64,000 nucleotides of DNA from a virus. Positions 255 through 44,404 of this stretch are shown here, piece after piece. How positions within the stretch are numbered: the stretch's first letter is position 1; every line of letters starts with the position of its first letter. The notes beneath the pieces are model-generated. The model was not told where the DNA came from and ran no database searches. It saw only the letters and a program-made list of their open reading frames with translations. A program made the position numbers and the translations under genes. The DNA is taken from positions 64,001-128,000 of IMG/VR virus record IMGVR_UViG_3300037010_002844; one strand, given 5' to 3'.

Positions 255-443
255 CTATTCCTCCACGCTTCTCGATGTTTTGATTACCAGCGATCCATTC
301 TTTAGACTCACAAGCTCCAAGAGCACCGGTTCTTGTTGGGAAGGTAGAAACCCAGCAAACTTCGCAGTGTCGACATGTTCTCTTAGAGCAGTGCGTAGAT
401 CATTACTGCTTGTAACAGCGTGTGTTGTTTCGATGATTTTCAT
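255..443 (-). CDS. Hypothetical 62-aa protein, translationally coupled between the epimerase and the hydroxymethylase.
   Basis: Internal ATG at 443-441 overlaps the epimerase TGA (ATGA). Its TAG at 255-257 directly abuts the TTG start of the next gene. Sequence starts MKIIETTHAVTSSNDLRTALREHV... Confidence 0.45.
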   Translation of the reverse strand: MKIIETTHAVTSSNDLRTALREHVDTAKFAGFLPSQQEPVLLELVSLKNGSLVIKTSRSVEE

Positions 444-1399
444 GTGTGCAGCTTCAATACCTTGGTCCACGACCAGTTGTCCTCGTACCACTTGATGGTG
501 CGGTCCAAGCCGTCCCAGAATCGTACCACGGGGATGTACCCGAGTACACGCTCAGCTTTCGAAACGTCGGCCTGCGTGTGCATCACATCACCCGGGCGCC
601 AAGGGGCATCGACATAGGAAGCGCCCGGATAACGACGCTTGAGCTCCTCAAGGATCTCTTTGTTCGTCGTTCGATCACCGCACGCCACGTTGAATGTTTC
701 GGCTCCAAGCTTTCCAGAATACGTGGCTGCCTTCATGCAGGCTGACACCACGTTGTCCACGTAACACATGTCACGGGACTGTGAGCCGTCACCGTCGGAG
801 CGCATAGGCACGCCTTTCTTGATCGCCGTCAACCACGCAGAAACCGCAGTAGCGTACGGTGAATCGCCGAGTTGATTGGGTCCGAAGACGTTGAAGAACC
901 GCATGCAGGCTGAGTCGAGACCGTAAAGCTCGCTGTACAACCGCAGATAGTCCTCAATGATCGCCTTCTGCAGAGCATAAGGCGACTTGGGATTCCGTGG
1001 AAAAGTCTCAGGGGTCGGCAGCACATCAGCGCCTCCGTACACAGATGAGCTGGAGGCGAAGACGACGTGATTGACATTGCCCTTGCAAGCCTCCAGGAGG
1101 AGCAATGTCTTGTCGACGTTGACCTCATGCGTTCTCAAGGGATAGAGGACTGAGTAAGAGACCCGCGGGACCGCCGCCAGGTGAATGACCGTGTCAAACT
1201 CCTGACGCCTGATCCGATCGAGGACCGTGGAGTTCGCAAAGTCGTTGGGTTGAAAGCGCACTGCGATGGGCGATGGCAAGAATTCGCGGTGACCGTTGCT
1301 CAGGTCATCGACGCAGGTGACGTGCCACCCAGCATCTAGACACGCCTTCGTCAGGTTCGAACCTATAAAACCCGCGGCACCCGTAATCAAAACTCTCAT
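440..1399 (-). CDS. NAD-dependent sugar-nucleotide epimerase/dehydratase (extended SDR, UDP-hexose/pentose 4-epimerase-like).
   Basis: N-terminal Rossmann motif VLITGAAGFIGSNL. Catalytic ASSSSVYG ... SPYALQK (S...YxxxK). Length of 319 aa is typical. Confidence 0.85.
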   Translation of the reverse strand: MRVLITGAAGFIGSNLTKACLDAGWHVTCVDDLSNGHREFLPSPIAVRFQPNDFANSTVLDRIRRQEFDTVIHLAAVPRVSYSVLYPLRTHEVNVDKTLLLLEACKGNVNHVVFASSSSVYGGADVLPTPETFPRNPKSPYALQKAIIEDYLRLYSELYGLDSACMRFFNVFGPNQLGDSPYATAVSAWLTAIKKGVPMRSDGDGSQSRDMCYVDNVVSACMKAATYSGKLGAETFNVACGDRTTNKEILEELKRRYPGASYVDAPWRPGDVMHTQADVSKAERVLGYIPVVRFWDGLDRTIKWYEDNWSWTKVLKLHT

Positions 1400-1431: not shown

Positions 1432-2226
1432 TCAACGGGTCGTGTTTAGCGACAAAAAGATGGTACCCCGGACAGGGTCAGCATCCAAGACACCACGAAT
1501 TGACGGGCTGGTGTAGTCGGCAAACAAACCCTCATCGGAAGTGTCTGCTAGGATCGCAGCAGGATCCTCGATCGAGGACTCAAATCCAAGCTTTATCATG
1601 ACCTCATCAAGATATATTGACACTTTCATGCACTGCTCGGGCGGAACCATCATACTGCACTTCGTCTTCAACGTCTTTGCATCCGGCATGGGCGAACAGG
1701 TGACCTTCGTCCCCTTGAGGCGTATGGCCTCACGCACAGCATTGACGACCTCAGTCAGCGTCTTCGGAGCCTTCTTGATGAGAGCAGTTGTCTTCGAACC
1801 CGACATCACGGAAACGACGGCCGTTGCCAGTGCCTTCGGATCGAACTTTGCGGGCCTGTGACCTGGGGCATAGTTCATGGCGTTGAAGTAACTGTCCGCC
1901 ATGTCAAGAACTGCATCGTGAACGTAGAACTCGACCATATCGAGCCACGTATCATGGCGTTCTGCAGGATCACGGATGCCAGACATCTCGGCCTCGATAT
2001 TGGTCCACGCCTCGTAAATCGCGCCGAAGATGGGCCCACCTTCGTAATCCTCATCGAGGGCCTCGTCGACGAGATCATCCGGCGCACCGGCCTGTTCGAG
2101 CGCCATGGCAAATGCCTTGCGAAACTCGGAAAATGACTTCGGAGGCGCTGCAGCGGCCTCCATGAGGTTGGCTACGACGGCGAGTACCTCTTCACGGATC
2201 ATTTGAACAAGCTCTGACTTCTTCAT
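1432..2226 (-). CDS. Hypothetical protein carrying the shared N-terminal leader motif.
   Basis: 264-aa ORF. N-terminus is MKKSELVQMIREEV (I-x-E leader, see findings). The AT-rich palindrome GGTAATAATTACC lies 20-32 nt upstream of the start. Confidence 0.6.
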   Translation of the reverse strand: MKKSELVQMIREEVLAVVANLMEAAAAPPKSFSEFRKAFAMALEQAGAPDDLVDEALDEDYEGGPIFGAIYEAWTNIEAEMSGIRDPAERHDTWLDMVEFYVHDAVLDMADSYFNAMNYAPGHRPAKFDPKALATAVVSVMSGSKTTALIKKAPKTLTEVVNAVREAIRLKGTKVTCSPMPDAKTLKTKCSMMVPPEQCMKVSIYLDEVMIKLGFESSIEDPAAILADTSDEGLFADYTSPSIRGVLDADPVRGTIFLSLNTTR

Positions 2227-2285
2227 CGGCGGAGTCTCCCTGGCAGGTAATTATTACCTTAGGCGGAGGGGGCCTATAACTAGGC

Positions 2286-5509: not shown

Positions 5510-6079
5510 TTAAACCGTGGGAATCGGCGTGTTCAGCTCGGGCGCATCTTGCACGTTTTCATAGTTCACGTAGAGCCCGTGACTGCCCACGCCCTTGCGC
5601 ACGTGTCCCAGGGACTCGCAGAAGACCACGTACTGCGCCAGCTGTTCCTCAACCTTCGACACCTCACCCACCTGGTCCTTGCCACGGTGCTTAAAGGTCA
5701 CACGTTGGCCCACAGAATATTTGGGAGTAACCCCATGGTGGTTTACCCATTCCGCGATCAGAGAATTGTGAGCCTTGATTCGCATGTAAGCTACATCCTC
5801 CAAGAGGTGGAGGAGCTCGTGATCAACCTCCCAGTAGTGAATGTTGTCCAACATCTTGGCAATGTCGTACGCATCGTCGTCGAACCTGACGGCACTTCTC
5901 AGGTCATCATGGATCTCCTTCAGGTAGGATTTCTCAAACTTGTCGGTGTCATCGCCCGCGGACTTCATCCACTGAATGACGCGTGGCATCAGGGCATCGA
6001 GCAGGCGCTCGAGCACCTCGGGATCCGTGCGATTCGGGCGAGGCGGCCAACCGCAGCCGAAGAGGACCTGCTGCTTCAT
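5510..6079 (-). CDS. Hypothetical protein.
   Basis: 189-aa ORF with an ATGA overlap to the upstream gene. No motif recognised. Confidence 0.5.
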   Translation of the reverse strand: MKQQVLFGCGWPPRPNRTDPEVLERLLDALMPRVIQWMKSAGDDTDKFEKSYLKEIHDDLRSAVRFDDDAYDIAKMLDNIHYWEVDHELLHLLEDVAYMRIKAHNSLIAEWVNHHGVTPKYSVGQRVTFKHRGKDQVGEVSKVEEQLAQYVVFCESLGHVRKGVGSHGLYVNYENVQDAPELNTPIPTV

Positions 6080-6267
6080 GGTTTGCTACTGTCGTAGAGT
6101 TCCTGTAGGGAGTTTGTGATCGTTTGGATGATTCCTGGTCGAATTCGGACCCAACACGGACTGCACAGCAACCCACGATTGGTGTGCCACTTTTGTGGGT
6201 CGAACGCCCAGTGAGGTGCCCCGCACTCAGGACAGGTGACCTTGACAATATCATCATTCGACGACAT
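6076..6267 (-). CDS. Small zinc-ribbon protein.
   Basis: CPECGAPHW...CSPCW (CxxC...CxxC). 63 aa. Confidence 0.5.
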   Translation of the reverse strand: MSSNDDIVKVTCPECGAPHWAFDPQKWHTNRGLLCSPCWVRIRPGIIQTITNSLQELYDSSKP

Positions 6268-6344
6268 GACATGAAAGTACTTTAGTACGCCCTCGGTTTA
6301 CACTTAGGCGTGCACCCGCACGATGGAGGGAATAATTACCATGC

Positions 6345-9300
6345 ATGAAGGTCACCCTGGGCACATTGCGCGAGTCAATCCTAGAAAGCTACGTTGAGAT
6401 TCTCGTCGAAGGCCGCATAGAAGACGCCCGTGAACGGTACCCTGACATTTCCGACGAGGACTTCGATGACCTAGTCGAGAATCAGCCGCAAGGGTCCAAC
6501 AACAAGTACCTGATGTGGTGTGCCAAGCAGGTCGACGATGGCTTTTCAGTCAACGTCGTCGTCCAGAACATGCGATTGTTCGACGGCAACAAGCAGCGAC
6601 TCGAGAAGAAGGACATCAACCAGTATGAAGATCCCAGCGCCATCGAGACCGCTGTCCAGGCCTTGGGTGGCAAGTCGAAGAGCCAGGAGTCCAAGCAGGC
6701 CAAGGCTGATTCTGACGTGATCTACAATGATGATCACTGGTTGGTCATCCGTCCTCACACCATGGGAGCCTCCTGCAAGTACGGCATCGGAACCAAGTGG
6801 TGCATTGCAGCGACCACGAGCCACAACTACTTCTCGACGTATTCAACCAGCAACAACAAGTTCTACTTCGTCATTGACAAGACGCAGTTGCAGACCACAC
6901 CCCCGCCTCCGAGTTCCAAGTACGCCATCGTCATTCGTGACGAGGCGGGCCGCAATAATGAGGCCTACGATGCCTCTGACAAACGAGTCCCGGTATCGAC
7001 AGTTGCTAAACACGTGGGCGTCGAGTGGCCGGCAATCTGGTCAAAGATTGAGGCTCACGTCAAGAAGGTCCCACTGACCCGTGAGGTTGAGGACGAACAA
7101 CGCGCGGTTGAGGAGCATGTCAATGACCTGATGGCGGGCAAAGACGTGTCTTCGCAGGCGCTACAAAAAATCGCCAAGAGTGCCAAGATGACGTTGCGGG
7201 TGGTGCAGAAGGTCTATGATCTCGCGGCGAAGAAGGTCGAGACCGGAGAAGACAAGTACATGCTTTCATTCTTGATGTATGCGCTCAGCGACAACATCGG
7301 CAACTTGACGCCCGATGCGGCGATGTTCTTCATTCAGAAGATCGGCGATGGCGGCAACAGCTACTACATCAAGCGGGCCATCGAACATGCCAACCTGACA
7401 GAAGAGAACTTCACGCAGTTGGTGAAGAGCGGCAACGAGGCCGTCATCGCGGCCATCATGGAGAATCCACGCGCTCCTGACGCATTGAAGGACGAGATCG
7501 TTAAGGTCATTCCGAACTTCAAGAATGACATGGCAAAACACGATGCATGGTGGGCCTTGATCAAAAGCGGGCGCTACACGCTTGAGCAGTTCAAGGAAGC
7601 CGTGGAAAGCAGCTCTGCTTCACATTACCACGTCGTCGCAGGTCAGGTGTTGAGACACATTGACGAACTGAACTTGACGCCCGAGCAGCTCATGTTGATC
7701 CCCGTCACTGACGAATACGACCTGAAGAACATCATGAAGGCACCCAACCTGCCACCGGCTCACCTAGGTGCCTTGATCGTTAAGCTCCGTGACAAGTTGT
7801 CGACGCAGTTCTTGATCAAGTTGTTGAAGCAGTCGAACATCGACTCTGACACTGTCGAGTTGTTGTGGAAGTCGGTCACGCCCGACATCAGGACGGCGCT
7901 ATTGCAGAACCCGTCGATCGGAGCGTCAAATGCCAGCAAGTTCGCCCTCAGCAAGAATCACGCCTACCGCTTTGCGGTGGCCCACAATCCGGTCACGCCC
8001 AAGGAGGACCTAGCTGTCCTCGCAGGTGATGAGTCGACTTCTACGCGGGCCGCGGTGGCTGCTAACCCCAACACGCCCGTTAATGTTCTGAAACAGCTAT
8101 CCCGCGATGAGGCCGTCGCCATCCGCGCGGCTGCCGCGTCAAATGCCGCTGTCGGCAACGATGTCCTGCAGGCCTTGACCAAAGACAGCGACAACTTCGT
8201 CAGGAGGGTCGCTCGCAAGACTCTGAAGTCCCTAAAGGTCGCTGAGGCCTATGTCAAGGCTGCGATGGGCATGCGTAGGATCTTGTTGGAAGAGCTCAGC
8301 GACGAAAACGAGAACCAGGACATCATGAATCCCTCCTGGCGCGACATCTCGACAAAGTCTCTCAAGTCTGACGAGTTCATTGTCATCTTCTTGCTGCAGA
8401 ACAACGGCCACGCCACCCGCGAAGAAATCGAGTCAGCATGGTTTGACTGGATGGGTCGCCTGGTTCGACGCCACGATTTGTGGAAGAGCACTCAACACGG
8501 CAAGGAACCCGTGCGAGGCATCAATGCCAGCGGCTCAGCTTGGTACTGGGCACCGCCGGGTATCGACAAGGGCGCGCTGTTCCAGCTGACGCCCGCGGGC
8601 GCGGCTGCTGCCATGCATGCCCTGAACAAGGTTCGTGGCAGCGTTGAGCCAAGGCGCTCTGAGGTCGGCTCGGCCGGCGCACGCCCGGGCAGGACGTACT
8701 ACATCAGCAATGATGTCTCGGCTTTTGACATCACCGGCCGCGAAAATGACGAGATCGAAAGTGAAGAGATCGAGGTCAATCGTTACTCTTCCGAGCCCGT
8801 CATCCGCGGTGGCAAGTACACGAAGTTGTCACCGAATCGCAGCCGTGCGTCCAGGATGCGCACCAAGGGCGCGGTCTACTGGAAGTTCACGAGCCCGAAT
8901 GGCCGTGAGACGTACACCAAGAACCTACCTCAGGTTGCCTTGAAGCGCGGTGCCGAGGTCACATACGTCAAGGCTGTCCATGCTCCGGGTAGCGGTGGTC
9001 ACCCGTACAACATGGCGATGGTCAAGTATGGCGACAGGTACCTGTTGACCGCATTCCCGTTGATGACGACGGCCTCGGGCGCCCGTGAGGAAAATGCACC
9101 AGAAAACGTGGCGCCGCCGATTAAGAAGTCGCCGCCGTCGAAGGCAACAGCTGCCGCGCCCGCCGCAGCTGCAGCGATTGAGCCCACGGCAGCCAAGGGT
9201 CCGAAGACGACCTACAAAATCTACGGCCGATTCAAAGGTCACCCGGCCGCGACGCGATTGAAAGGTCAAGCCTACGTGGCCGGACAAGACACGCAGTTCT

Positions 9301-9404
9301 CGGCCGGTGAGCAGGCAGTCATTTCCAAGACGGACGACGGCAAGCTCAAGGTCAAGAAGGCTGACTCGGATCACAGCCAGATCTGGGAGCCGATTGACGG
9401 CTAA
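6345..9404 (+). CDS. Large (1019 aa) LRV/HEAT-like repeat protein with the N-terminal leader motif; candidate packaged virion protein.
   Basis: N-terminus is MKVTLGTLRESILESY. The central region has repeats of the leucine-rich-repeat-variant type (AVAHNPVTPKEDLAVLAGDESTSTRAAVAANPNTPVNVLKQLSRDEAVAIRAAAASN). There is an Ala/Pro-rich linker near the C-terminus. It is one of the few plus-strand genes. Confidence 0.7.
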   Translation: MKVTLGTLRESILESYVEILVEGRIEDARERYPDISDEDFDDLVENQPQGSNNKYLMWCAKQVDDGFSVNVVVQNMRLFDGNKQRLEKKDINQYEDPSAIETAVQALGGKSKSQESKQAKADSDVIYNDDHWLVIRPHTMGASCKYGIGTKWCIAATTSHNYFSTYSTSNNKFYFVIDKTQLQTTPPPPSSKYAIVIRDEAGRNNEAYDASDKRVPVSTVAKHVGVEWPAIWSKIEAHVKKVPLTREVEDEQRAVEEHVNDLMAGKDVSSQALQKIAKSAKMTLRVVQKVYDLAAKKVETGEDKYMLSFLMYALSDNIGNLTPDAAMFFIQKIGDGGNSYYIKRAIEHANLTEENFTQLVKSGNEAVIAAIMENPRAPDALKDEIVKVIPNFKNDMAKHDAWWALIKSGRYTLEQFKEAVESSSASHYHVVAGQVLRHIDELNLTPEQLMLIPVTDEYDLKNIMKAPNLPPAHLGALIVKLRDKLSTQFLIKLLKQSNIDSDTVELLWKSVTPDIRTALLQNPSIGASNASKFALSKNHAYRFAVAHNPVTPKEDLAVLAGDESTSTRAAVAANPNTPVNVLKQLSRDEAVAIRAAAASNAAVGNDVLQALTKDSDNFVRRVARKTLKSLKVAEAYVKAAMGMRRILLEELSDENENQDIMNPSWRDISTKSLKSDEFIVIFLLQNNGHATREEIESAWFDWMGRLVRRHDLWKSTQHGKEPVRGINASGSAWYWAPPGIDKGALFQLTPAGAAAAMHALNKVRGSVEPRRSEVGSAGARPGRTYYISNDVSAFDITGRENDEIESEEIEVNRYSSEPVIRGGKYTKLSPNRSRASRMRTKGAVYWKFTSPNGRETYTKNLPQVALKRGAEVTYVKAVHAPGSGGHPYNMAMVKYGDRYLLTAFPLMTTASGAREENAPENVAPPIKKSPPSKATAAAPAAAAAIEPTAAKGPKTTYKIYGRFKGHPAATRLKGQAYVAGQDTQFSAGEQAVISKTDDGKLKVKKADSDHSQIWEPIDG

Positions 9405-10067: not shown

Positions 10068-11198
10068 TTACGTGATTTCCCTCAACTTCCAGACCGTCGT
10101 CGACGCGCCAAAGTCGTCCCTCTTGACCTCGGCACAACACAGGATGAAGGGGTCAGGAAGCTCCTTGCCGCCCCAGACAGAAATCTTCGTGGCCTTGCCA
10201 GTGGGTCCAACCGCAAAGATTTGCACATATTCCTTGCCATTGCGGGTCTTCTTCTTGATGCCCGTCACCGGCTTGCCACCCTTCTTTGCAGCAACAGGGG
10301 CCGTGACAAACCAGACGACCGCCGTGTCACCGTGCTCCAGGTCGTCAATGCTATTGACGCCCTTCTTCTCCAAGGCAGCCAAGATTTCGATGTCAATCAT
10401 GGCGGTGACGTCCAAAGCACCGAAGACGTCGACCATATTTTGAGCACGTTCAGAAGACGACCAGTCCTCGATGTCAGCGTAGTCCCTGACCAACTGGTAG
10501 AAGTTCTTAAGGCCCTCGTGCGGGTCAGACTTCGGGTGTCGCTTGATCAACGCCCCGTGATCGATGTCGACCTCTTCGGTGACCTCGACGCCCTTGCGCT
10601 TCTTGGTCACGGTCTCCACGTGAGAACCGAAGAGGACCTCGTGCATGTGATGATAGTTGTTGAAGACCTTGCCTTCGCCCACGATGTCCATACTGCCGAA
10701 GGCACCGATCTTGACCAGGGCCTCCATCGCCTTCTTGTTGAACTTGCTGTGTTTCCACTCGAAGTTGTCATCCCACAGCAACTCCTCGATAGTGTTGTAG
10801 GGACGGTTGGCCATGATCTCTTCGACCGCCGAGTCGCCGACACCCTTGCAGGACGTCATCGACGGCATCAACTTCTTGCCGGGCAGCGCGGTCCACCCGA
10901 GCCCCGCCAGGTTGATGTCGATCGGGACGATCTGATAGCCCAAGGCCTTTACCTCGCTGAACGCCTTAGCACGTTGAGCAGGAGTGTGCGACATGCTTTC
11001 GAGATAGGCACACAGCCATTCCTCCTCGTGATATGTCATCAGCCAGGCGCACCAGAAGCTGTCAATGGCGTATGCCACTGCATGGCTGTTAGACGTCAGT
11101 ATCCCGTTAGCGAGATAGAACTGGTGATCCGGGTGATCGACTTCGAGGTCATAGGTCTGGTGTCGACCCACGGGTGTGATAGACTTGATGTTACTCAT
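10068..11198 (-). CDS. dnaE: DnaE (Pol III alpha) fragment 8 of 8: C-intein 7 plus the C-terminal extein.
   Basis: C-intein 7 at 11088-11198 is MSNIKSITPVGRHQTYDLEVDHPDHQFYLANGILTSN. The extein at 10071-11087 starts SHAVAYAIDSFWCAWLMTYHEEEW, which matches the DnaE KSHAAAYA helix onward. Confidence 0.85.
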   Translation of the reverse strand: MSNIKSITPVGRHQTYDLEVDHPDHQFYLANGILTSNSHAVAYAIDSFWCAWLMTYHEEEWLCAYLESMSHTPAQRAKAFSEVKALGYQIVPIDINLAGLGWTALPGKKLMPSMTSCKGVGDSAVEEIMANRPYNTIEELLWDDNFEWKHSKFNKKAMEALVKIGAFGSMDIVGEGKVFNNYHHMHEVLFGSHVETVTKKRKGVEVTEEVDIDHGALIKRHPKSDPHEGLKNFYQLVRDYADIEDWSSSERAQNMVDVFGALDVTAMIDIEILAALEKKGVNSIDDLEHGDTAVVWFVTAPVAAKKGGKPVTGIKKKTRNGKEYVQIFAVGPTGKATKISVWGGKELPDPFILCCAEVKRDDFGASTTVWKLREIT

Positions 11199-11419
11199 GT
11201 GAGCAGGTCCTTCAACAGGTCTTCGATCGCTCCTGCGTTCGGTTCATCAAGCATTGCTTTAGCATACTCTTCTTCAATGTACTCGTCAGTCGGCTGGAGT
11301 TCAACCTTCGTTTCGCTTTTGCGTCGGTAACGTGCCGCGGCCCGTAACAGTTCGATCGGACTCAGACCCATGCGTTGGGCAATGTCATTCAGTGCGATTT
11401 CAAACGGCGGTCTTTTCAT
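11195..11419 (-). CDS. Small hypothetical protein (possible HTH) inside the intein-7 gap.
   Basis: 74 aa, with IALNDIAQRMGLSPIELLRAAARY. Overlaps the neighbouring genes at both ends. Confidence 0.4.
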   Translation of the reverse strand: MKRPPFEIALNDIAQRMGLSPIELLRAAARYRRKSETKVELQPTDEYIEEEYAKAMLDEPNAGAIEDLLKDLLT

Positions 11420-12449
11420 ACGCTTTTCCTATCCGATGAACGCCAGGTCGAGGATCTTTCAGGATCTCAAAAAGCTTTTTCAAGCAATCAGGTTCGAAGC
11501 GACCGCCATCCTTGTATGAGAACTGATCGTAAGAAATTCGAATGAGTGTCCAATCATGTTTAGTGATGTAATCATCAAGCATTGCATCCATGCACTTCAC
11601 TCGTTCAAAATTATCCTCGCCTTTAATACGTGCATTAAAATGGATGATTCCATCAAATTCAACATAAATGTGTCTTGATCGATCGGCAATGTCAACTTGC
11701 TTTCTTTTAGATTTGTTTGGAAAAGCAACTGACTTGACGACCTGATTATGAACAAAATCATAACCTTCAACGTTTTTCAACAAATCAAACAACGCTAATT
11801 CCGGAATGCTATGCCAAATAGCATGTGCAGCTTTTGTGCACTTTTCGTAGAACTCATCGGGGTTCAACTCACGCCAACGGGCCAGGCGCTCAGCACGTGC
11901 CTTGAGTATCTCAGGCCGGGTTGACGTTAGTCTTGCAACGTCTGATGAACGTTTACGGGCTTCAGGTCGTCGATTAAGTTCTCCCATTAGTTCAGAGCGA
12001 CGTTTCCTCTCGCCCGGATTGCTCGTGATGGCCTCACTGACCGCACGGCCCATCTTTTCCTTGTAGGCAGTCAAATCATCACCGCGTGCCTTCGCTCGTT
12101 TGAGCCAGGCGAAATTCTGCCCACGATGCTTGAAACGCGCTGTCGAGACTTTCGATGTGATTGCGGCAGTCGGGTACGCTTTCAGGTATTCTTCTTTGCT
12201 CATACCATGCGTCCCCGACAAGTGCTTTGCCAGTGCCTTACCCGTGAAGCCACAGACTTGGCATGTGACACTCTCACTGTCACCGAGTATGAATCCTTGG
12301 CACCTAGCTTGGTGTTTTTCGTAGGCCTTCAGGTAGACGAAGAGCCTGCTACATCGGTCACAACGATGCTGAGGCCCCGTTCGGCAATCATCCACAGGGG
12401 CAACATCTCGTTTGTCTCCTTCGTCCTGAACTTGTGATCCCACGTGCAC
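11400..12449 (-). mobile_element. Free-standing homing-endonuclease gene in the intein-7 gap (MucR-like zinc finger plus a DUF559/Vsr-like PD-(D/E)XK domain).
   Basis: CQVCGFTGKALAKHLSGTHGMSKEEYLKAYP resembles the Ros/MucR finger. The C-terminal SIPELALFDLL...QVDIADRSRHIYVEFDGIIH resembles the DUF559/Vsr-like nuclease core. It lies between N-intein 7 and C-intein 7. Confidence 0.65.
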
Positions 12450-13030
12450 TTTACCTTCTCTCCGGTCACCAACTCCACTTCTACCAAGTCTAGCTCACCG
12501 TGGTCGTGTTTTGCAACAACAGGGACGAGGATGTTTTTACCTGAATTCTCATCACGAGACATGACCAGGTCGCCGGGTTCGATGTGTTGAAGCTGCTTTG
12601 TCTCTTTGAACGTGCCGTCTGAAAAAAAGGTATTTACTGGTTCCGAAAAGTACAAACTTTTATTGAAGCCGTAGCCCGCGAAGTACAGAATCTTGTCGTA
12701 GAGGTTGTTGGCCACCTTCTCGGTATAACCGTTGGCGATGCAACCCTTGACGAACCCGTCACGGGTCTCTTGGGCTGCCTTCTTTGCCGCCTCACCGCCC
12801 GAGATGCTGCGCTTCATGATTGCGCGACGGACCTCGTCACACTTGTCCTTCGGGAAGCCGGCAGCCTTCTCGGCGAGTTCCATCACCTGTTCCTGAAAAA
12901 TTATGCAGTTATGCACGAGAAGGCCATTTGCGAAGAAGTTGTTGTTCTTCTTGACCTGGATGTCGTACACAGGCTGTGCAGGAACACGCTTGATCGCACG
13001 GATCTTGACGGGAACTACGTCAGGCATCAC
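12329..13030 (-). CDS. dnaE: DnaE fragment 7: C-intein 6, extein, N-intein 7.
   Basis: C-intein 6 at 12908-13030 ends PVYDIQVKKNNNFFANGLLVHN. The extein at 12659-12907 is CIIFQEQVMELAE...DEVRRAIMKRS...ILYFAGYGFNK. N-intein 7 at 12332-12658 is SLYFSEPVNTFFSDG...CTWDHKF. Confidence 0.85.
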   Translation of the reverse strand: MMPDVVPVKIRAIKRVPAQPVYDIQVKKNNNFFANGLLVHNCIIFQEQVMELAEKAAGFPKDKCDEVRRAIMKRSISGGEAAKKAAQETRDGFVKGCIANGYTEKVANNLYDKILYFAGYGFNKSLYFSEPVNTFFSDGTFKETKQLQHIEPGDLVMSRDENSGKNILVPVVAKHDHGELDLVEVELVTGEKVKCTWDHKFRTKETNEMLPLWMIAERGLSIVVTDVAGSSST

Positions 13031-13344
13031 TTACGCTCCGTTTCACGATGAGTCTGACAAACAATGTGTAATGACATTGAGCGCGACAAAGCATCACTGC
13101 CTAGAACGACTCGGCAAGGGTTGAGATTTTCCCCCACATGACGCATCCATTCTTGCAAAGCGTTGATCAATCGTTGGGCTTCGTTGAAACCCTCATGCGA
13201 GGGTGGAAACTGACAGCAACCTACCAAATCTCTAGTCCCAGGATCATATGCAATGATTCGCAAATTCCCATGAACGTTCATCTCTAGCGTTAGAGATCCA
13301 TAAACATCGTCATCGATCTCGCTAGTGTAAAGATCTGCGCTCAT
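13027..13344 (-). CDS. Hypothetical protein (cargo ORF in the intein-6 gap).
   Basis: 105-aa ORF with an ATGA-type overlap to fragment 7. No motif recognised. Confidence 0.45.
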   Translation of the reverse strand: MSADLYTSEIDDDVYGSLTLEMNVHGNLRIIAYDPGTRDLVGCCQFPPSHEGFNEAQRLINALQEWMRHVGENLNPCRVVLGSDALSRSMSLHIVCQTHRETERK

Positions 13345-13345
13345 A

Positions 13346-13591
13346 TCATTTTTCTTTCATGTTCAATGATGATGCGCAGAGTTGGCACACTGGTCCATCA
13401 ACACTCAAAACACGTTGACCATGGTATTCGAGCTCCATATCATTTCCGACCTCTTCATAAGCTCGAAATGTGTCGAACCAGTCGGCATACGTGAGATCAT
13501 CACGCTTTCCAAATGCCGTATGTGACTTCATCGTGTTGATAAAGTTCTTGAACGACGTAAGCAACTCCTCTTCAAAATCATCAATCTTCAT
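13346..13591 (-). CDS. Hypothetical protein (cargo ORF in the intein-6 gap).
   Basis: 81-aa ORF starting MKIDDFEEELLTSF. No nuclease motif. Confidence 0.45.
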   Translation of the reverse strand: MKIDDFEEELLTSFKNFINTMKSHTAFGKRDDLTYADWFDTFRAYEEVGNDMELEYHGQRVLSVDGPVCQLCASSLNMKEK

Positions 13592-13662
13592 GTCTAAATT
13601 GTCCTCAATTTGAGGTGATAGTTCAAGGCATCAGACTCCCAGACGCGGTACACCGTGAAGCC

Positions 13663-13842
13663 TCAAGTTCTTGTGGCAAGCGTCCATAATTGATCAAGCC
13701 TAAATTGCTTCTTCATCGCAGGTGTTAGTTCATGCTTCGCTGGGTTACTGTGCCAATAGTCGCCGTCGTACTCGATGATGAGGTTGAGTGATGGCACGAC
13801 GAAGTAGCCTGGTTTCAGTACTTCATTCCCAAAATCTCGTCT
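13663..13842 (-). pseudogene. Remnant of a Vsr-like homing endonuclease.
   Basis: My translation of a start-less open stretch is RRDFGNEVLKPGYFVVPSLNLIIEYDGDYWHSNPAKHELTPAMKKQFRLDQLWTLATRT*. The IEYDGDYWHS core matches AIECNG(V/L)YWHSE of the two intact endonucleases at 15352 and 17837. Confidence 0.6.
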
Positions 13843-14414
13843 TCAGACGTCAGTTCACCTGCTTGCACCCAACCACGAGGCGTCATGACAAGGTGATCTT
13901 CAGTCAAAGACAAAGTTTCTCCACCCTCCAGCTCAACCTCGATGATGTCACGTACGCCGTTTGAGGCGACAGCGACAACTTCGTCCATCTCGACGGTCTT
14001 CGTCATTTCATTGTATGACGGAAGCTTAGTTCCCACCATTCCTTGTTCAACGATTTGTCTAATGGGAACCTCACCTTGCTCAGTAAGGATATGTGTGTCA
14101 CCCGTCAAACACGAGTATGTCTTCTTCAGGATGTCGTTGACGCGGTGATCGCCCCACTCCAACTCCTTGCCGTCATTCTTCGCCTCCAAGTACAGTCGAT
14201 CGACTTTGGCGGCCAAGGGACCCGGGCGATAGATGCTGGTCAGCGTCGCGATGTCGATGATGCTCTTGGGCTTGCCTTTGACAAAGAGTCGCTGAGCGCC
14301 CTGGCCCGTGCAATTGTGAACAACGACGTCGTTAGCGACGAAATTATGATGATTTCGCACCTCGATGTCGTAGACGTGGCGCTTACCCACGCTGCGTGAT
14401 GACACAAGCTTCAA
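13815..14414 (-). CDS. dnaE: DnaE fragment 6: C-intein 5, extein, N-intein 6.
   Basis: C-intein 5 at 14313-14414 is MKLVSSRSVGKRHVYDIEVRNHHNFVANDVVVHN. The extein at 14112-14312 is CTGQGAQ...LTSIYRPGPLAAK...ILKKTYS. N-intein 6 at 13818-14111 is CLTGDTHILTEQG...LTEDHLVMTPRGW. Confidence 0.85.
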   Translation of the reverse strand: MKLVSSRSVGKRHVYDIEVRNHHNFVANDVVVHNCTGQGAQRLFVKGKPKSIIDIATLTSIYRPGPLAAKVDRLYLEAKNDGKELEWGDHRVNDILKKTYSCLTGDTHILTEQGEVPIRQIVEQGMVGTKLPSYNEMTKTVEMDEVVAVASNGVRDIIEVELEGGETLSLTEDHLVMTPRGWVQAGELTSEDEILGMKY

Positions 14415-14772
14415 GCGTCGTCTCCTTCTTTTCTAGCAACTGTAGGTCATATCCACTGACAAGTGCACACTTGAGCGTCGGATGCAACGTTACGAATGCG
14501 TCAAACTTCTCCCTAGCATCATCACGCCACCAGCCCTTGACTTCCACGTACACCCGCTTAAAGAGCTCCAACGTCGGTCATTGACGATGGAAGATCATGT
14601 ACGCCTCTCTTGTGAGCTGGATCCTGATCTCCTCCTCGCTGAAGCCCTCGTCCATGCAATGACGCCAGTTGTCATACAGGTCGACGACGCCATTCTTTCC
14701 GTTCCCGTTGCCCGCTGAGTGCAGAAAGTACAAAGGGGCGCTACGATGAGCGGAGCGCGTCCGTACAATCAC
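14383..14772 (-). pseudogene. T7 endonuclease I-like homing endonuclease remnant with an in-frame TGA (intein-5 gap).
   Basis: ORFs 14578..14772 and 14383..14571 are in the same frame and are separated only by TGA 14578-14580. VYVEVKGWWRDDAREKFDAFVTLHPTL resembles T7 endonuclease I FVETKGLWESDDRKKHLLIREQHPEL as I recall it. The upstream PD motif is not preserved. Confidence 0.55.
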
Positions 14773-14856
14773 ATGTTGCGGAGTCGTGGGCCTGTTGCGT
14801 CTCTGTAAGGCGACATGGCCACGGTCGCGGCGAAACCTGCGACCAAAACGCCCGCC

Positions 14857-15333
14857 TCACGTCAATCCACGAGCTTCGTAACCACTGCTAGACCCAATCA
14901 ACTCGTCGTCTTCGGTTAGGTGCTGTGCCTCAACCCACCCGCGATTCTTCGTCAAGATGGGATGATCAGCGGTGCAGACAAGCTTCTTGCCGTCGTCGAA
15001 CACGAGCTCGATGCACTCCTTGGGTCCTTGGTCGTAAACGACGTCGACGACTGATGTGGTGAACTGCTGCTTGACTTCATCGAAGACCGTCACCTCGTCA
15101 CCGACATGGACGTCCTTGATCAACTTGTACGAGTCATCGCCCATCAGCACTGCCGTGTCCTGGTCGACGCACTGGAAGATGCCTGCCCACTTGCCTTTCT
15201 CGTAGACCTCGTAAGGTTTGGGATCGGTGAAATCAATGACGGCCGGGTGCATGTGCTGCTCGAACCAGGTCTTGATGTCATTGAATGATACCGCATTTGT
15301 ATGTGCGTCAACGTTAGCAACGACTTTTGCCAT
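14857..15333 (-). CDS. dnaE: DnaE fragment 5: degenerate C-intein stub, extein, N-intein 5.
   Basis: MAKVVANVDAHTN is a decayed block-G-like stub. The extein at 15172-15294 is AVSF...DPKPYEVYEKGKWAGIFQ. N-intein 5 at 14860-15171 is CVDQDTAVLMGDD...CTADHPILTKNRGWVEAQHLTEDDEL. Confidence 0.8.
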   Translation of the reverse strand: MAKVVANVDAHTNAVSFNDIKTWFEQHMHPAVIDFTDPKPYEVYEKGKWAGIFQCVDQDTAVLMGDDSYKLIKDVHVGDEVTVFDEVKQQFTTSVVDVVYDQGPKECIELVFDDGKKLVCTADHPILTKNRGWVEAQHLTEDDELIGSSSGYEARGLT

Positions 15334-15351
15334 GTCTTTGTAAAGGTACTT

Positions 15352-17151
15352 TCACAGGTCCATAACGTACACCGCGTTGGAGCAACCAAAGATCTTAAAA
15401 AGCCTGTGTTCCATCGCCATCTCTTCTTGTGATGCGATCCCCGGAATCGCCCTGACAGCAAATCTATCGATACGATTTTGTCCGTCCGTCCACCAAAACC
15501 TAGGCTGCGTCATGTGATCAAATCTAAAACCAGATAGTTCATACGCCCGGCCAGTGCCACCCAACCTCATGTCACGGTATGTGATCATTTTTTGGTAACC
15601 ATGCTCACGTGACCAATCCCTGGCAGCGTTGATCAACCGCGACATGCCTCCAACGACGATGGTATCGCGGGCCGTTGAAACCCGCGCCAATTCAATTGTC
15701 TTAGATCCCCACTTAGTCTGCTGGTGCGGTTTTCGCAATGTCAATGCACAAATAATGTTTCCAGCAATGTCCTCTAGCCAGAACGAATGCGACGAAGGAG
15801 TGTTTCCATCGAGGTGATTGTTCGCCATGAACTGAGCGGTGATGGCTGGACGACCGCTGCGAAGATGTAGCTTTCGTGCCATCACGCGAGTAGCAAGACC
15901 AAGCTTTACCCTGATCATGCTTTTGATGATGTTTTTCTTTACATCATGGTGCCATTCATCGTCGAAGATATGTAGCAACGACACACCACGCTCAAGAGCG
16001 CGAGTCGACTTGTCTTGGTGATACGATGGTGGAGTACCGGTCGCCTCACTGTGCCAATAGACACCGTTGCACTCGATGGCAATCCTTCCGTTACCTGACA
16101 CGATGTCCAGCTCATAAGGCGCGATTGACTGTCTGTCGTTGGCGATGGCGTTCGAATCGAGCTTGACGAAGAAATCGAACACCTCACGATGCCAGCGAGA
16201 GAAATTAGCCGGGTAGCACGTTGAACACACCTTTCCCTTGTAAAGGACGTTAAAGGGAACAATATCAGGTACGTTACAACTGACGCATGTCACATGCACC
16301 GGTGTTGAGTATCCAGCAAACTCAAATTTTTCGATGTTCCACCTCGACCGCAGTGCATCAACTCGCCGTTCGACCTCTTCGAGAGACAACCGAAAAGGAG
16401 AGTTAGTGCCGTTCTCGATAAGGCGTTTTCTAGTCTCGATGATCGAACGTTTGATATCTTCAGAATTAGCGTTCCGAGACCAATGATTCAAGCGAACGCC
16501 TTCGCCGATCCGTTCTGATCGCCGTTTGATCCTATCGTCAGTTTCTGACGTCTGACCGTGCTGCGTCCAGTGTTTTTCTACTTGCCATTTTTCAGTCAAT
16601 GCTCGAGAGATGTTATGCGCAGCTCTTGTGATAGATTCATTATTTTCTTTAGTTTGTCCTGTTCTCCAGTGCCCGTGTTTTTTGATGAAATCACGACAAC
16701 CTTGTGCGGCCCTTCGAACCGATTCAGACGTTGTTTCTGACAGCCCCTTGTTCCATGCAGGCAATGATTTTGATTTCCGGCTAAGCGCACCTCTTACTTG
16801 AGAGTTCTTCTTGCTACAAACTCCACAGAGACGTTCATATCCCGTTTGAAAGGTCATGAACTTGACCGGCCCTGAACACTGAACGCACGGTCCAGGGTGC
16901 TCTCGAAAAAGAAGGTACGCAGCCTCCGCATTGAGCCCGTGCTTTTTAAGGAGATGTGCGCGGAGCGAATTTAGGCTAGCTTTTCGCAATGGATCATTGC
17001 ACTGTGGGCACCTCGAAGGACACGATGTCATCGCCGGGCCCGAGCTCCCTCGCAAGGATGGTGCCCCTGTTGCTGGTGACGATTCGTTGGTCGCCGTAGA
17101 CGCCTCGTGTCGTTCCATCGTCGAGTTGGATCTCAAACCACCCTCTTTCAT
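15352..17151 (-). mobile_element. Free-standing homing-endonuclease gene (zinc finger, NUMOD3-like repeats, Vsr-like nuclease, conserved C-terminal domain) at junction 4.
   Basis: Contains CPQCNDPL...HLLKKH, WNKGLSETTSESV and TGQTKENNESI repeats, and YELDIVSGNGRIAIECNGVYWHSE. The C-terminus is YRDMRLGGTGRAYELSGFRF...FWWTD...IFGCSNAVYVMDL. It is a paralog of 17837..19570. The true start is probably an internal Met (17118 or 17031), because the track start overlaps fragment 4. Confidence 0.75.
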
Positions 17152-17851
17152 GTCGTTCCTTTTTGATGATGAGCTCGATGGCGCGCTCGATGAGCCGCAT
17201 CGTTTCTAGACCTAGGAGGTCGTACTTGATGAACTCTCCGATCTTCTCAAGGTGTTTATAATTTACGCCCTCGACCCAAGGTGACTGTGGCTCGCGGACG
17301 CCGGCCTTGCCTTTGGACGTCACCAAAGGCATCTTGTTGGGCAAATCGTCTGCAATCAGCACACCACCCGCGTGACGACCGAGACTACGATTCTGCTTGA
17401 AGAGGATCTTGATCGACTCGGCGACGACCGGGTACTTCTCAATGAAGCCGCGAAACGACGGGCTGACCGGCTGCTTACACTCTGGGCTACAGCCCTGGCA
17501 GATGGACTTCGACTCCGGGCCCTTAGGAGCCCTGCAGTGGAAGGCCATGGCCTCATCGTAGGTCAAGACGAACAGATTCTTGTCGTCGCCTTCCTTCATC
17601 GTCGCCTTACGGACCTCGTCCTCGACGGTCCGCGTGGCAGCGTTGGTCTCCTCGAATGGGATGCCGTAGAACTTGCCGATATCCTTTACAAGCGTTTTTA
17701 GTTTGAAACAGTTATAATTGCTGATGGGAACGACGTTTTCCCACCCAAAAAAGTTTCGAAGTTCATCAAGAACCTCATCTCGCCTGGCAAGATCGGTGTT
17801 GTGAACAACGACGCTCTTGTTGGACGCCAAAAATGAATGAACGACCATCAC
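16994..17851 (-). CDS. dnaE: DnaE fragment 4: very short C-intein 3, palm/fingers extein, degenerate N-intein remnant.
   Basis: Starts MVVHSFLASNKSVVVHN (17798-17848, ATG at 17848). The extein is TDLARRDEVLDELRNFFGWENVV...SLGRHAGGVLI...IKYDLLGLETMRLIERA. The tail at 16997-17140 is WFEIQLDDGTTRGVYGDQRIVTSNRGTILARELGPGDDIVSFEVPTVQ. Confidence 0.85.
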   Translation of the reverse strand: MMVVHSFLASNKSVVVHNTDLARRDEVLDELRNFFGWENVVPISNYNCFKLKTLVKDIGKFYGIPFEETNAATRTVEDEVRKATMKEGDDKNLFVLTYDEAMAFHCRAPKGPESKSICQGCSPECKQPVSPSFRGFIEKYPVVAESIKILFKQNRSLGRHAGGVLIADDLPNKMPLVTSKGKAGVREPQSPWVEGVNYKHLEKIGEFIKYDLLGLETMRLIERAIELIIKKERHERGWFEIQLDDGTTRGVYGDQRIVTSNRGTILARELGPGDDIVSFEVPTVQ

Positions 17852-19570: not shown

Positions 19571-19872
19571 CGCTAATGTCATCGTCAAACTTTGAGGACG
19601 CATTTTCTTTGAGCCAGAAGATGGCGTCAATTGTGCGCTCGTCGGCGTCGGCGTCATCGCACGACGTAGCCCCATAGTATGGGGGCCAAATCGTGCTCAA
19701 ACCCTTTAACGCGCAGTTTGACCTGACAATCTTGAAATTCAGGATTTTCTGCAGCTCTCGTCTGAGCTATTCTTTCCAGGCCAGACACTATCACATCATC
19801 TGCTCGGCAGAATCGCCGTTGTCTGTAAGCTGCACCGCATCAACGTTGCTCGGACACGGTCCCAACTCCAGC

Positions 19873-20610: not shown

Positions 20611-21532
20611 AGTCCCTGTGCTCTAGATTGGCAATCGTATGGTACAAACCTTGTCGACGAAGTTCACCATAGAAGTCATTCATGTACACGACGTCGATGC
20701 GCTGACCAGACGCCACAACGACTTCCCGTGAACGTGCGTTTGAGTTAAGCAACTTTGAGAAACGCGATTTGCCTTCTCGCACACCTTTCAACTCCACGTA
20801 TCGGTCCTCATCACTGAACCAAAAGTCTGGAGTGTAACACTTCTCTTTGCCATCGATGACAACATGGAAAGACCTATGTTCATAGAATGGCATCTTACCG
20901 AGGTGCAAGCAATATCTGTAGTAGTCGGCTTCGAACGAGCTCTTGAAGTACGGGCTGTTTAGGATGTCGGAACGAAAACACGAGCGTCCGTTCACATGTG
21001 AAGCAACCATATCACGTGACTGTGCCTCGCGGGTGCACCGTTTGGAACAGAACCGCGGCACGTAGCTCTTCTTGGTGACGATCGGTTCGCTACAAACTTC
21101 GCATACCAACGTGTGGCGGTCAAACCTCGATGCAGCGAAACATTTGGGTGAACAGAACCTGCGATTGACGTTCTTCGTTGAGAAAGTGCCTAGACACTGT
21201 ACACATGTCAGTGTACGGAGCTCATTCTTTGTCAGCGCTTTCGCAGTGTACTTGTGCCTGCACGCATTCGAACATAGTTTTCTGTTGTTGTGACACTTTG
21301 GAACGTAGAACTCATCGCCGTACTCGACGCACGTCTTCACAAGCCTCGAGGGCATGGGAGCGTGTGACATCAGCTTCCTGTGAGCGACGGCACACTCATC
21401 AGTGCAGTACGGGCGATGGAGCCTACTACCAGAACCCTTGCAGTTGGGCTCATAGTTGAACTGAAACATAATACCACAGTGTTTACACTGTTTCTCAATG
21501 ATGCTCATAGTGGTACGTGTACAGCTCGTCAC
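20567..21532 (-). mobile_element. Free-standing homing-endonuclease gene in the intein-2 gap (four CxxC...FCSxxC zinc modules plus a T7 endonuclease I-like PD-(D/E)XK domain).
   Basis: The repeats are CKHCG...RPYCTDEC, CVEYG...RKLCSNAC, CVQCL...RRFCSPKC and CEVCS...PRFCSKRC. The C-terminal KCYTPDFWFSDEDRYVELKGVREGKSRFSKL matches the T7 endo I YTPDF...FVETKG core as recalled. Confidence 0.7.
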
Positions 21533-43349: not shown

Positions 43350-43613
43350 TCACGTCTGCTGGATGAATTGCCAGAGGGCGTCTTCAGCCACAGCGTACAT
43401 CTTCTCGTCGAGCTCAGCCAGTGTCTTGTTGGCGATCTGCATCAACTCACGGGCCTGTGACGGATTCTCAGCGCGAAGCTGGATGAACCGCTTGACGTGC
43501 TGGCGGATCCGATCAGTGCAGTCGTCCGTCGCCTGACGCACCATGAACTCTGGGACGCCGCGCATGAACTCCTCGCAGATGATCTGCCTCAGATCTCCCA
43601 GACGAACCTTCAT
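43350..43613 (-). CDS. Hypothetical small protein with the leader motif.
   Basis: MKVRLGDLRQIICEEF. 87 aa. Confidence 0.55.
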   Translation of the reverse strand: MKVRLGDLRQIICEEFMRGVPEFMVRQATDDCTDRIRQHVKRFIQLRAENPSQARELMQIANKTLAELDEKMYAVAEDALWQFIQQT

Positions 43614-43972
43614 CAGGACTCCGACTTGCCCTTCAGAGCACGAGCCCAGGCGCCCTTGACCGCGCTACCGACCTGCGACATCATGGTCTCAGTCGCGCCC
43701 TCGGCGGCCTGCTTCAACTGCTCGTAGGTCGCATCGTCAAATTCACGTGAGCCCTCGTCGTACTTGTCGGCGTGTGCCAACAGCAGTGCATGCATCACAG
43801 AATTACTGAAGTGGCGCTCGAGGTTGCCCAAGGCCTGCGAAATGTTCTGCGACTCGAGAGGATCCTTGACGGCAGTGTTGCCGGCACGAAAGAGCGCCGG
43901 CGACAGTCCGACTTCGGAGATGACACTTTCGCGGATCAGGCGACGTAGGGTTCCCAACTTGATCTTCATCAC
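43613..43972 (-). CDS. Hypothetical small protein with the leader motif.
   Basis: MMKIKLGTLRRLIRESV. 119 aa, overlapping its neighbours. Confidence 0.55.
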   Translation of the reverse strand: MMKIKLGTLRRLIRESVISEVGLSPALFRAGNTAVKDPLESQNISQALGNLERHFSNSVMHALLLAHADKYDEGSREFDDATYEQLKQAAEGATETMMSQVGSAVKGAWARALKGKSES

Positions 43973-44391
43973 AGTTCCTCTGAATCGTTGTGGTCAATGA
44001 CAGAAGCCACGGCCTCGTAGATGCCGTCTGACAGGTCGTTCAACCGCGAGCTGATCTCAACGGTAATATTTGCGCGGAGATCTTCGAGATCATCAACGTA
44101 CTCCAGCGATTCCTTGAGGGTCCGAGGAGTGATGCGGTTCAACCCATCAGACTTCCGGTAGGTCTCCTCCGCGATGATTGCGTAGGCCTTCTTTTGGAAA
44201 TTCTCGACCGCCGAGGTCGCCTCTTCGAAGACAAGCTGCGAAAGACGTTCCTGGATGACCAACTGCGTGTCGGTGTCAAATCCACTGACCATTTCCTTGA
44301 ACGAGGGCTCACGGCGCTTTTCCAGCGCCGTTTGCACTTCTTCCTGAATGATCTCGTTGATTCGGACGGCCTGCCGAGGCGTGATTCTCAT
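43969..44391 (-). CDS. Hypothetical small protein with a weaker version of the leader motif.
   Basis: MRITPRQAVRINEIIQEEV. 140 aa. Confidence 0.55.
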   Translation of the reverse strand: MRITPRQAVRINEIIQEEVQTALEKRREPSFKEMVSGFDTDTQLVIQERLSQLVFEEATSAVENFQKKAYAIIAEETYRKSDGLNRITPRTLKESLEYVDDLEDLRANITVEISSRLNDLSDGIYEAVASVIDHNDSEEL

Positions 44392-44404
44392 GCAGGTAAG
44401 TATC

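Follow-up and report, generated by a model that had tools for sequence, protein, structure and literature searches.

Gene and conservation

The stretch of DNA analysed here (the window) comprises 64,000 nucleotides of the viral record IMGVR_UViG_3300037010_002844, positions 64,001 to 128,000, and the gene in question codes for a repeat-containing protein of 1019 amino acids (aa) in the left part of the window. The open reading frame (ORF) lies at 6345..9404 on the plus strand, with the ATG at 6345, the stop at 9402-9404 and 1019 codons plus stop, and these coordinates and the length agree exactly with a first-pass annotation made from the letters alone. The AT skew was positive across 6001-8000, which is expected where a plus-strand gene lies amid minus-strand coding, and it was flipped also at the ORF at 17837-19570 (+). 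As this second ORF codes for 577 aa and is on the plus strand also in the gene calls of the source contig, it is not correct, as had been stated, that the left half holds no other large plus-strand gene than the 1019-aa one.

The identical protein (P0001) is recorded on 6-7 metagenomic contigs, of which the longest is 309,481 bp. Homologues numbered 55, with identities down to 24%, all of them metagenomic and on contigs of up to 345 kb, and with these the ORF is a real, conserved core gene of an uncultured jumbo-phage clade. Megablast for near-identical DNA gave no match in phage records, and no cultured phage has DNA similar to the gene.

Domain architecture

The anatomy of the protein was read from an alignment of 20 orthologues (alignment A1) and from two AlphaFold2 models, one of the N-terminal domain and one of the C-terminal region, with model confidence given as the predicted local distance difference test score (pLDDT). 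The following features were distinguished:

6332..6338 (+), promoter-like heptamer ATAATTA (consensus ATA[ACT]TTA), the ATG 6 nucleotides (nt) after the motif
6345..6419 (+), aa 1-25, leader, MKVTLGTLRESILESYVEILVEGR, pattern MK.xL..LR...LVEGR
6420..7109 (+), aa 26-255, N-terminal domain, pLDDT 84
6765..6881 (+), aa 141-179, Cys/Trp segment, including the superfamily-invariant G147, W152 and C153
7110..8279 (+), aa 256-645, repeat region, presumed helical, with Pfam leucine-rich-repeat variant (LRV) repeats only at aa ~544-620 (nt 7974-8204)
8307..8654 (+), aa ~655-770, small alpha/beta domain, FLLQNNGHATREEI ... LFxLTPAGA, pLDDT ~80 in places, with a low-confidence loop
8667..9104 (+), aa ~775-920, beta-rich insert domain, pLDDT 80-92
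9105..9203 (+), aa 921-953, Ala/Pro-rich linker, predicted disordered, 58% A+P, pLDDT <50
9204..9401 (+), aa 954-1019, C-terminal small beta-barrel of 5-6 strands, pLDDT 77-87

The model of the N-terminal domain consists of a helical half, a small sheet with the GTKWCIAA loop, and then two long helices; the GTKWCIAA stretch itself is an exposed loop of low confidence (pLDDT 57-65). The motifs of the domain are (Q/D)P.GsNNKYL.W, RL.KKDINQY and RPhT..ASC.YG.GTKWCIAAT..NYF..YS..N.FYFVIDK, and the Cys/Trp-containing peptide quoted in the first-pass annotation, GASCKYGIGTKWCIAATTSHNYFSTYSTSNNKFYFVIDK, was located at aa 141-179. Mean identity among the orthologues was highest in the C-terminal barrel (70%), followed by the N-terminal domain (58-59%), the LRV part at aa 501-645 (55%) and the leader (52%), and lowest in aa 256-500 (34%).

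A long array of LRV- and HEAT-like helices had been proposed, and of this the LRV part stood, though over about 80 aa only. Both Pfam LRV models scored above their gathering thresholds (PF01816 with 40.3 bits against 21.6, PF25591 with 28.3 against 27), and three canonical tandem repeats were present at aa 546, 572 and 598, with a period of 26 residues and spanning ~546-620. The HEAT models PF13646 (E 0.42) and PF02985 (E 0.63) remained far below their cut-offs. The protein is thus like known LRV repeat proteins in that its three repeats pass both thresholds, and differs from them in that the repeats make up only about 8% of its length. To judge from their sequence, the repeats would point to a protein-binding solenoid and to nothing more specific.

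The Ala/Pro linker recognised earlier was recovered, whereas the C-terminal domain behind it exists as described but is only mildly basic (11 K/R against 8 D/E, net +3). The beta-rich insert is present only in the long orthologues (~1020-1050 aa) and is missing from the forms of ~880-920 aa. Three parts, namely the alpha/beta domain, the beta-rich insert and the C-terminal barrel, were placed in no known family either by sequence profiles or by Foldseek, and all three occur in orthologues only. Foldseek gave no match with E<1e-3 for the C-terminal region in the PDB, and for the barrel it gave weak likeness only to SH3, Tudor, KOW and NfeD-OB folds. Profiles were made of the N-terminal domain, of the C-terminal region and of the C-terminal domain by itself, and against PDB sequences they produced only chance-level matches (E≥0.046), and no solved structure matched the N-terminal domain or the C-terminal region. 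A word-indexed search with the C-terminal domain alignment returned one fragment. A winged helix at aa 655-770, to which the alpha/beta domain bears a loose likeness, was considered and dropped, as it had no Pfam match, no PDB sequence match and no Foldseek match with E<1e-3. The C-terminal domain is therefore described, from the model, just as a predicted small beta-barrel that is SH3/KOW/OB-like; its very high conservation suggests that it may have a conserved binding partner.

Leader peptide

The leader looks, by eye, like an amphipathic helix ending in a conserved E-G-R. When the pattern ^M[KR][IVLT].[LIVM]..[LIFM][RKQ] was scanned over the 1765 candidate starts in the window, four starts matched against ~0.4 expected by our own estimate, and all four were ATG starts of plausible genes. 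The leader motif that had been noticed earlier is accordingly real, being present in four window ORFs and conserved among orthologues. It could not be explained as a DNA-level repeat, as the nucleotides differ at synonymous positions and the likeness is at the level of the peptide. Besides the 1019-aa protein and its orthologue in the related locus L005, the following ORFs have the leader or a leader-like start (window coordinates unless another locus is named):

43613-43969 (-), leader ORF, 118 aa, MKIKLGTLRRLIRES
43350-43613 (-), leader ORF, 87 aa, MKVRLGDLRQIICEE
26880-28031 (-), leader-like ORF, 383 aa, MRLRLQELQRVV
1432-2226 (-), ORF of 264 aa with a leader-like N-terminus, behind an ATA[ACT]TTA motif
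L005, 6733-7863 (+), leader ORF, DnaJ+WGR protein
L005, 21509-21733 (-), leader ORF, 74 aa
L005, 20315-21475 (-), leader ORF, orthologue of the 383-aa protein
L010, 13399-13767 (-), leader ORF, 122 aa

These ORFs are 74-386 aa long, start with MK.xL..LR..I.E and are otherwise unrelated; those of the window that were scanned had no Pfam or PHROG matches. Across the superfamily to which the N-terminal domain belongs (below), the domain has in front of it, with few exceptions, a hydrophobic helix that is shorter than this leader and ends in L-x-E-G-R.

The internal proteins IPI-III and Alt of phage T4 are unrelated proteins, small as well as large, which share a short amphipathic N-terminal capsid-targeting sequence, followed by an (L/I)-x-E site for the prohead protease. 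The leader studied here resembles the arrangement in IPI, IPII, IPIII and Alt in being common to at least four ORFs of the window and to more in its relatives. Also an [IL]-x-E was present at residues 12-14 in six of the eight leaders, as read from the printed sequences, so that these six may share the shape of the T4 protease site. There is, however, no sequence similarity between the leader and the T4 targeting sequence, and the leader, unlike the latter, also starts a folded domain family. No prohead protease was identified in the 64-kb window.

N-terminal domain superfamily

The profile of the N-terminal domain was compared with hmmsearch to 1.84 billion representatives of clusters formed at 50% identity, and it detected a superfamily of 8,172 clusters at E≤1e-3, of which 3,799 were supported at E≤1e-10. 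The first copy of the domain begins at most 60 residues from the N-terminus in 190 of the 214 proteins examined, and some giant members hold 2-5 copies. The members sit on viral or phage-like contigs, and the orthologous family was not found in a GTDB scan of 185,579 prokaryotic species genomes. The domain, which the first-pass annotation could not match to any family, can thus be assigned: its superfamily is one of phages, has no name and is distantly PcfJ-like.

No functional names were present among the superfamily members looked up in the clusters, and an NCBIfam search with the domain found nothing. A word-indexed search with a diverse alignment of the domain returned 16 unnamed proteins, and the domain was matched by the function-less PHROGs 17056 and 28193 (E 1.2e-9 and 7.2e-8). 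Among the predicted viral structures of BFVD, Foldseek detected 22 matches at E≤1e-3, and the structural neighbours there include ankyrin- and LRR-annotated proteins (LRR, leucine-rich repeat).

The relation to PcfJ (PF14284, gathering score 25 bits) was traced through intermediate sequences. Neither the 1019-aa protein nor its residues 1-262 matched the PcfJ model at E≤1, whereas the superfamily member P0065 scored 30.6 bits over residues 496-602, inside its domain copy at 428-650. Sub-threshold PcfJ matches were present in 18 of 39 diverse members (best E 1.9e-4), and a BFVD 'PcfJ-like protein' was a weak structural match to the domain (E 0.04). Taken transitively, these three findings support a distant relationship between the N-terminal domain and PcfJ. 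A hydrophobic-Cys motif with an aromatic-rich helix behind it is presumably common to the two. The link to the PcfJ-like family, named after PcfJ of pCF10, names the fold of the N-terminal domain without explaining it, because PcfJ has no known function; a literature search on that function returned nothing informative.

The C-terminal partners of the domain vary. Pfam domains in 63 superfamily members of 540-1300 aa included LRV most frequently (14), then HEAT (9) and BspA-type LRR (3), with single cases of Fic, tyrosine phosphatases, GNAT, InPase, WG repeats and others. The domain also occurs in tandem paralogue arrays, with four copies in the metagenomic phage contig L009 (3370-5436 and 9974-12489) and three adjacent paralogues in Salicola phage SCTP-2 (L007, 5911-10958), these latter without the first ~55 profile positions. 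No further copy was found within the window. From their sequence, the fusion partners have the look of effectors or binders that work inside the cell, and not of modules for receptor binding. An N-terminal module that is conserved, binding or enzymatic C-termini that are exchanged, and expansion by paralogues make up a pattern seen in delivered effectors or arms-race proteins, and it is not that of receptor-binding fibres or replisome parts.

Invariant or near-invariant positions in the superfamily were P48, K54, Y55, W58, F79, K89, D90, P137, G147, T150, W152, C153, Y166, K192, A194 and D212. It is on the whole unlikely, although these residues speak for it, that the N-terminal domain has an enzymatic activity of its own, for instance one dependent on Cys153 together with conserved Lys and Asp, the C-terminal modules then targeting it to its substrates. 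G147, W152, C153 and Y166 are invariant and K54, K89/D90, T150, K192 and D212 near-invariant among members which share only ~30% identity, the GTKWCIAA loop is exposed in the model, and the domain has been retained while its partners vary. Nevertheless, there is no conserved His for a Cys-protease dyad, and PcfJ itself is not known to have an activity. The protein would on this view be an effector, packaged or not, and the explanation can overlap both with virion cargo and with early expression in the host, which are treated below.

A homologue in the virions of phage PA5oct

When the domain was searched with tblastn against 50,697 phage records, it was detected only in the Wroclawvirus (PA5oct-like) phages; a second superfamily member used as query added Salicola phage SCTP-2, and BFVD added Caulobacter phage CcrBL9 and metagenomic phages. 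The PA5oct homologue gp205 (EST35_0205, QCG76086.1) matched the family profile with an hhalign probability of 99.6% (E 1.4e-24) and the fold of the N-terminal domain with a Foldseek E of 2.6e-8. The homology extends over ~130 residues of the N-terminal domain with about 30% identity. In GenBank gp205 is annotated as 'structural protein' on the basis of tandem mass spectrometry with electrospray ionization (ESI-MS/MS), and its gene lies inside a block of virion genes detected by mass spectrometry (MS). Altogether 93 virion-associated proteins have been identified in PA5oct virions by ESI-MS/MS (PMC7318152).

The N-terminal core motifs DP.s.N.KYL.W, KKDINQYKT and G.GT+WC.AA are shared by the 1019-aa protein, gp205, the Wroclawvirus homologues and PHROGs 17056 and 28193, and all of these are jumbo-phage proteins of unassigned role. 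There are also several differences: gp205 has 482 aa instead of 1019, it is without the MK.xL..LR leader and its E-G-R, and its C-terminal half is unrelated, with neither the LRV repeats nor the C-terminal domains. Furthermore, the gp205 gene is placed among MS-detected virion genes, and the 1019-aa gene beside dnaE. Judged by the sequence relationship, the annotation of gp205 would give indirect support for virion association of the 1019-aa protein.

The reading that we tentatively prefer, short of calling it probable, is that the 1019-aa protein is a virion-packaged and ejected multidomain cargo which acts at the onset of infection. The particle would take up the protein and, along with the DNA, set it free in the cell. 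Leader and PcfJ-like domain would form a shared module for incorporation, delivery or the binding of a common partner, and the LRV solenoid would serve as a protein-binding scaffold. The alpha/beta domain, the optional insert, the flexible linker and the C-terminal barrel would bind a conserved partner, which could be nucleic acid or a protein of the phage or of the host. Transcription would start from the gene's own ATA[ACT]TTA element, giving an mRNA that begins at or beside the AUG. What the sequences show is the gene with its domains, conservation and synteny, its place in the superfamily, the leader it shares and the conserved motif in front of it; packaging into the virion, delivery to the host, any proteolytic cleavage of the leader and binding by the C-terminal domains are all inferred.

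Promoter-like heptamer

The motif ATA[ACT]TTA is present 4-7 nt before the conserved ATG in the upstream alignment of six orthologous loci, i.e. the window, L005, L010, L011, L012 and L013. Seven copies were found in the window against 3.0 expected, and each of the seven is located 12-28 nt upstream of an ATG which is on the same strand and begins an ORF of 80 aa or more. A random site has this position 8% of the time, which gives a probability of about 3e-8 for seven out of seven. In the related loci, likewise, eight of eight copies are placed in this way upstream of gene starts. The ATG follows the motif by 5-6 nt in five of the seven window sites, the gap having no Shine-Dalgarno sequence, and the 1019-aa gene has GGAGG upstream of the heptamer; at the remaining two sites, AGGAG or GGGAG stands further downstream. 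As the ATG is so close after the motif, with no Shine-Dalgarno sequence between them, the arrangement suggests a -10-like promoter element giving leaderless or short-leader mRNAs, and the heptamer may define a small regulon.

The genes behind the heptamer are the 1019-aa gene, the 383-aa leader protein, the operon with the small leader ORFs, the 264-aa ORF, a Lar-like zinc ribbon, an LD-carboxypeptidase and an 80-aa ORF:

2248-2254 (-), 6332-6338 (+), 25610-25616 (+), 28050-28056 (-), 29922-29928 (-), 44397-44403 (-) and 54568-54574 (-), the heptamers of the window
43350..44403 (-), operon headed by ATACTTA (44397-44403), with ORFs of 140 aa (43969-44391), 118 aa and 87 aa
26880..28056 (-), region of the 383-aa ORF, with ATACTTA at 28050-28056 plus a Shine-Dalgarno sequence
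25622-26038 (+), Lar-like zinc ribbon, 138 aa, near-threshold (PF14354 with 27.9 bits against a cut-off of 28.6), ATATTTA upstream
28962-29915 (-), LD-carboxypeptidase with the Peptidase_S66 N- and C-terminal domains (E 6e-29 and 8e-25), ATACTTA upstream

The ORFs of the operon had no Pfam or PHROG matches. In L005 the orthologue of the 383-aa protein has the same leader and the same heptamer, and the counterpart of the Lar-like gene (18938-19732, 264 aa) agrees with it both in its N-terminus and in the motif; to judge from these sequences, the set of genes behind the heptamer appears partly conserved between phages. The LD-carboxypeptidase could be a cell-wall enzyme for entry or lysis, and by analogy anti-restriction (Lar-like) and cell-wall activities may both be functions of the time of entry.

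In jumbo phages which encode RNA polymerases, the early promoters used by the virion polymerase are marked by AT-rich motifs that are conserved and centred near -10 (PMC7598289). This likeness brings in the main rival explanation, that the 1019-aa protein is an immediate-early host-takeover or anti-defence protein outside the virion, which we consider possible though rather unlikely. It would be translated from a leaderless mRNA made from a phage-specific early promoter after DNA entry, and act in the cytoplasm through the LRV scaffold and the C-terminal domains. The AT-rich heptamer conserved in front of the six orthologues agrees with this, as does its presence in front of a Lar-like restriction-alleviation zinc ribbon, and the conserved opposite orientation of the gene within its cluster suggests a separate temporal class. 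Against it stand the finding of the PA5oct homologue in virions and the fact that no phage RNA polymerase was identified in the 64-kb window. Furthermore, the late promoters of T4 are equally conspicuous, and as both early and late promoters can be so, the temporal class of the heptamer is not readable from the sequence. The T4 late promoter TATAAATA itself was absent from the window. A scan for sigma-70 promoters and terminators around the 1019-aa gene gave chance-level counts.

Genomic context

The 1019-aa gene is the sole inverted gene between a cluster of epimerase, methyltransferase-like and AAA_28 genes and a group of small ORFs followed by dnaE, and this inverted position has been kept in four lineages with 34-100% identity. 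The placement between a modification operon and dnaE, as first proposed, is correct for dnaE, fragments of which with inteins were found. The label of the operon fared less well: only the NAD-dependent epimerase/dehydratase was confirmed, while the methyltransferase and AAA_28 matches were weak.

A position this close to dnaE could mean that the protein serves the replisome or chromosome of the phage as a replication- or DNA-associated accessory and takes no part in entry, an explanation based on synteny which we regard as very unlikely. Its adjacency to dnaE and to genes of nucleotide metabolism is deeply conserved, and the mildly basic C-terminal barrel has the weak KOW, Tudor and OB likeness already mentioned. 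The gene is divergent, however, with its own promoter-like element apart from the replication genes, and no DNA-binding family was significant in the Pfam, PDB or Foldseek searches. Also the fusion of the superfamily domain to effector-like domains and its paralogue arrays are unlike a replisome component.

The confirmed NAD-dependent sugar epimerase/dehydratase lies at 440-1399 (-) (Pfam E 6e-51). A second apparent epimerase/dehydratase at 24212-25234 (-) was judged from its similar N-terminus and from an epimerase at the matching position of L005. Relatives also have two epimerase/dehydratase genes, and one has a gene like UDP-galactopyranose mutase. The paired epimerases suggest sugar-nucleotide metabolism, possibly for DNA or surface modification.

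The dnaE gene at ~10068-23762 (-) is split into several ORFs with intein/Hint fragments (HHH_6, DNA_pol3_finger, Intein_splicing and PT-HINT), and in L005 it is one intact gene of 1263 aa. It is interrupted by other ORFs, including the 577-aa ORF (17837-19570, +) and one of 599 aa (-), which both have weak matches to the MTES_1575 restriction-endonuclease-like domain. Towards the right end of the window, the 1028-aa ORF at 59800-62886 (-) had a weak match (E 0.002, below threshold) to the trimerisation region of the T4 tail fibre gp37, and the neighbouring 1002-aa ORF at 56491-59499 (-) had no matches; these two may be structural genes.

Proposed packaging and delivery of the 1019-aa protein

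The 1019-aa protein is outside every characterised family and a member of a catalogued but unnamed phage family, and it joins the N-terminal domain of this family to clade-specific C-terminal domains. Among the kinds of protein already known, it most resembles phage proteins that share an N-terminal tag and are packaged or act at entry, as in T4 and P1. The first-pass annotation had likened it to injected internal proteins, and this is partly supported, in that the gp205 homologue is MS-annotated in virions, but not by any homology to internal or ejected proteins of T4, phiKZ or P1.

Besides gp205, the occurrence of the leader on several unrelated proteins and the effector-like fusion partners in the superfamily speak for packaging and ejection, as do the Lar-like and LD-carboxypeptidase genes behind the heptamer with their presumed functions at entry. 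Several observations weigh on the other side. The proteomic support comes solely from gp205, a distant homologue that shares only the core of the N-terminal domain, and the 1019-aa gene is located in a replication and nucleotide-metabolism cluster instead of a structural module. With internal proteins of T4, phiKZ or P1 no homology was detectable, and in the tblastn search of the phage records no phiKZ-like head proteins were matched. The leader and its E-G-R also begin the internal domain copies of multi-copy proteins, and because those copies start there too, the leader may be nothing more than the helix with which the fold opens (helix 0); it could be either this or a detachable signal. The tripeptide [IL]-x-E is a common one. 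An AT-rich motif near the transcription start is typical of early promoters in jumbo phages encoding RNA polymerases (PMC7598289), and owing to this likeness a non-virion early protein suits the heptamer equally well; its being common to the Lar-like gene also suits an immediate-early class. Finally, polar residues are conserved in large number in the N-terminal domain (K54, K89, D90, T150, C153, Y166, K192 and D212), a pattern that, by analogy, would be more usual for an enzyme or ligand site than for a passive targeting domain.

The idea of packaged cargo can be extended to the whole superfamily. Leader and PcfJ-like domain might be a general and so far overlooked delivery or packaging module of jumbo phages, with the cargo genes of this clade forming an ATA[ACT]TTA regulon of leaderless mRNAs, which we hold to be doubtful. 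The common N-terminal 'ticket' would then carry LRV, LRR, HEAT, Fic, phosphatase and GNAT modules into the virion and from there into the host, in a manner that may be likened to the trafficking domains of polymorphic toxins.

The giant packaged anti-restriction protein DarB of phage P1 and the polyvalent proteins have several domains and presumably accompany the DNA; the polyvalent proteins are reportedly treated by Iyer et al. 2017. The superfamily members with Fic, phosphatase, GNAT and InPase modules may be likened to these, whereas the 1019-aa protein differs from DarB in having neither homology to it nor a recognisable enzymatic domain.

Should the packaged-cargo reading be wrong, the gene is a conserved hypothetical protein with a better-defined domain map. 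The heptamer is in addition a candidate promoter class with leaderless transcripts in a phage lineage without transcription data. If the protein is indeed virion cargo, the gene would represent a family of more than 8,000 clusters with which jumbo phages would deliver repeat scaffolds and enzymes into hosts, and it would offer a means of approaching the host takeover and anti-defence of giant phages that are uncultured, as well as a candidate targeting tag for packaging foreign proteins. With gp205 of PA5oct the family has a cultured and tractable member, and the idea is thereby testable.

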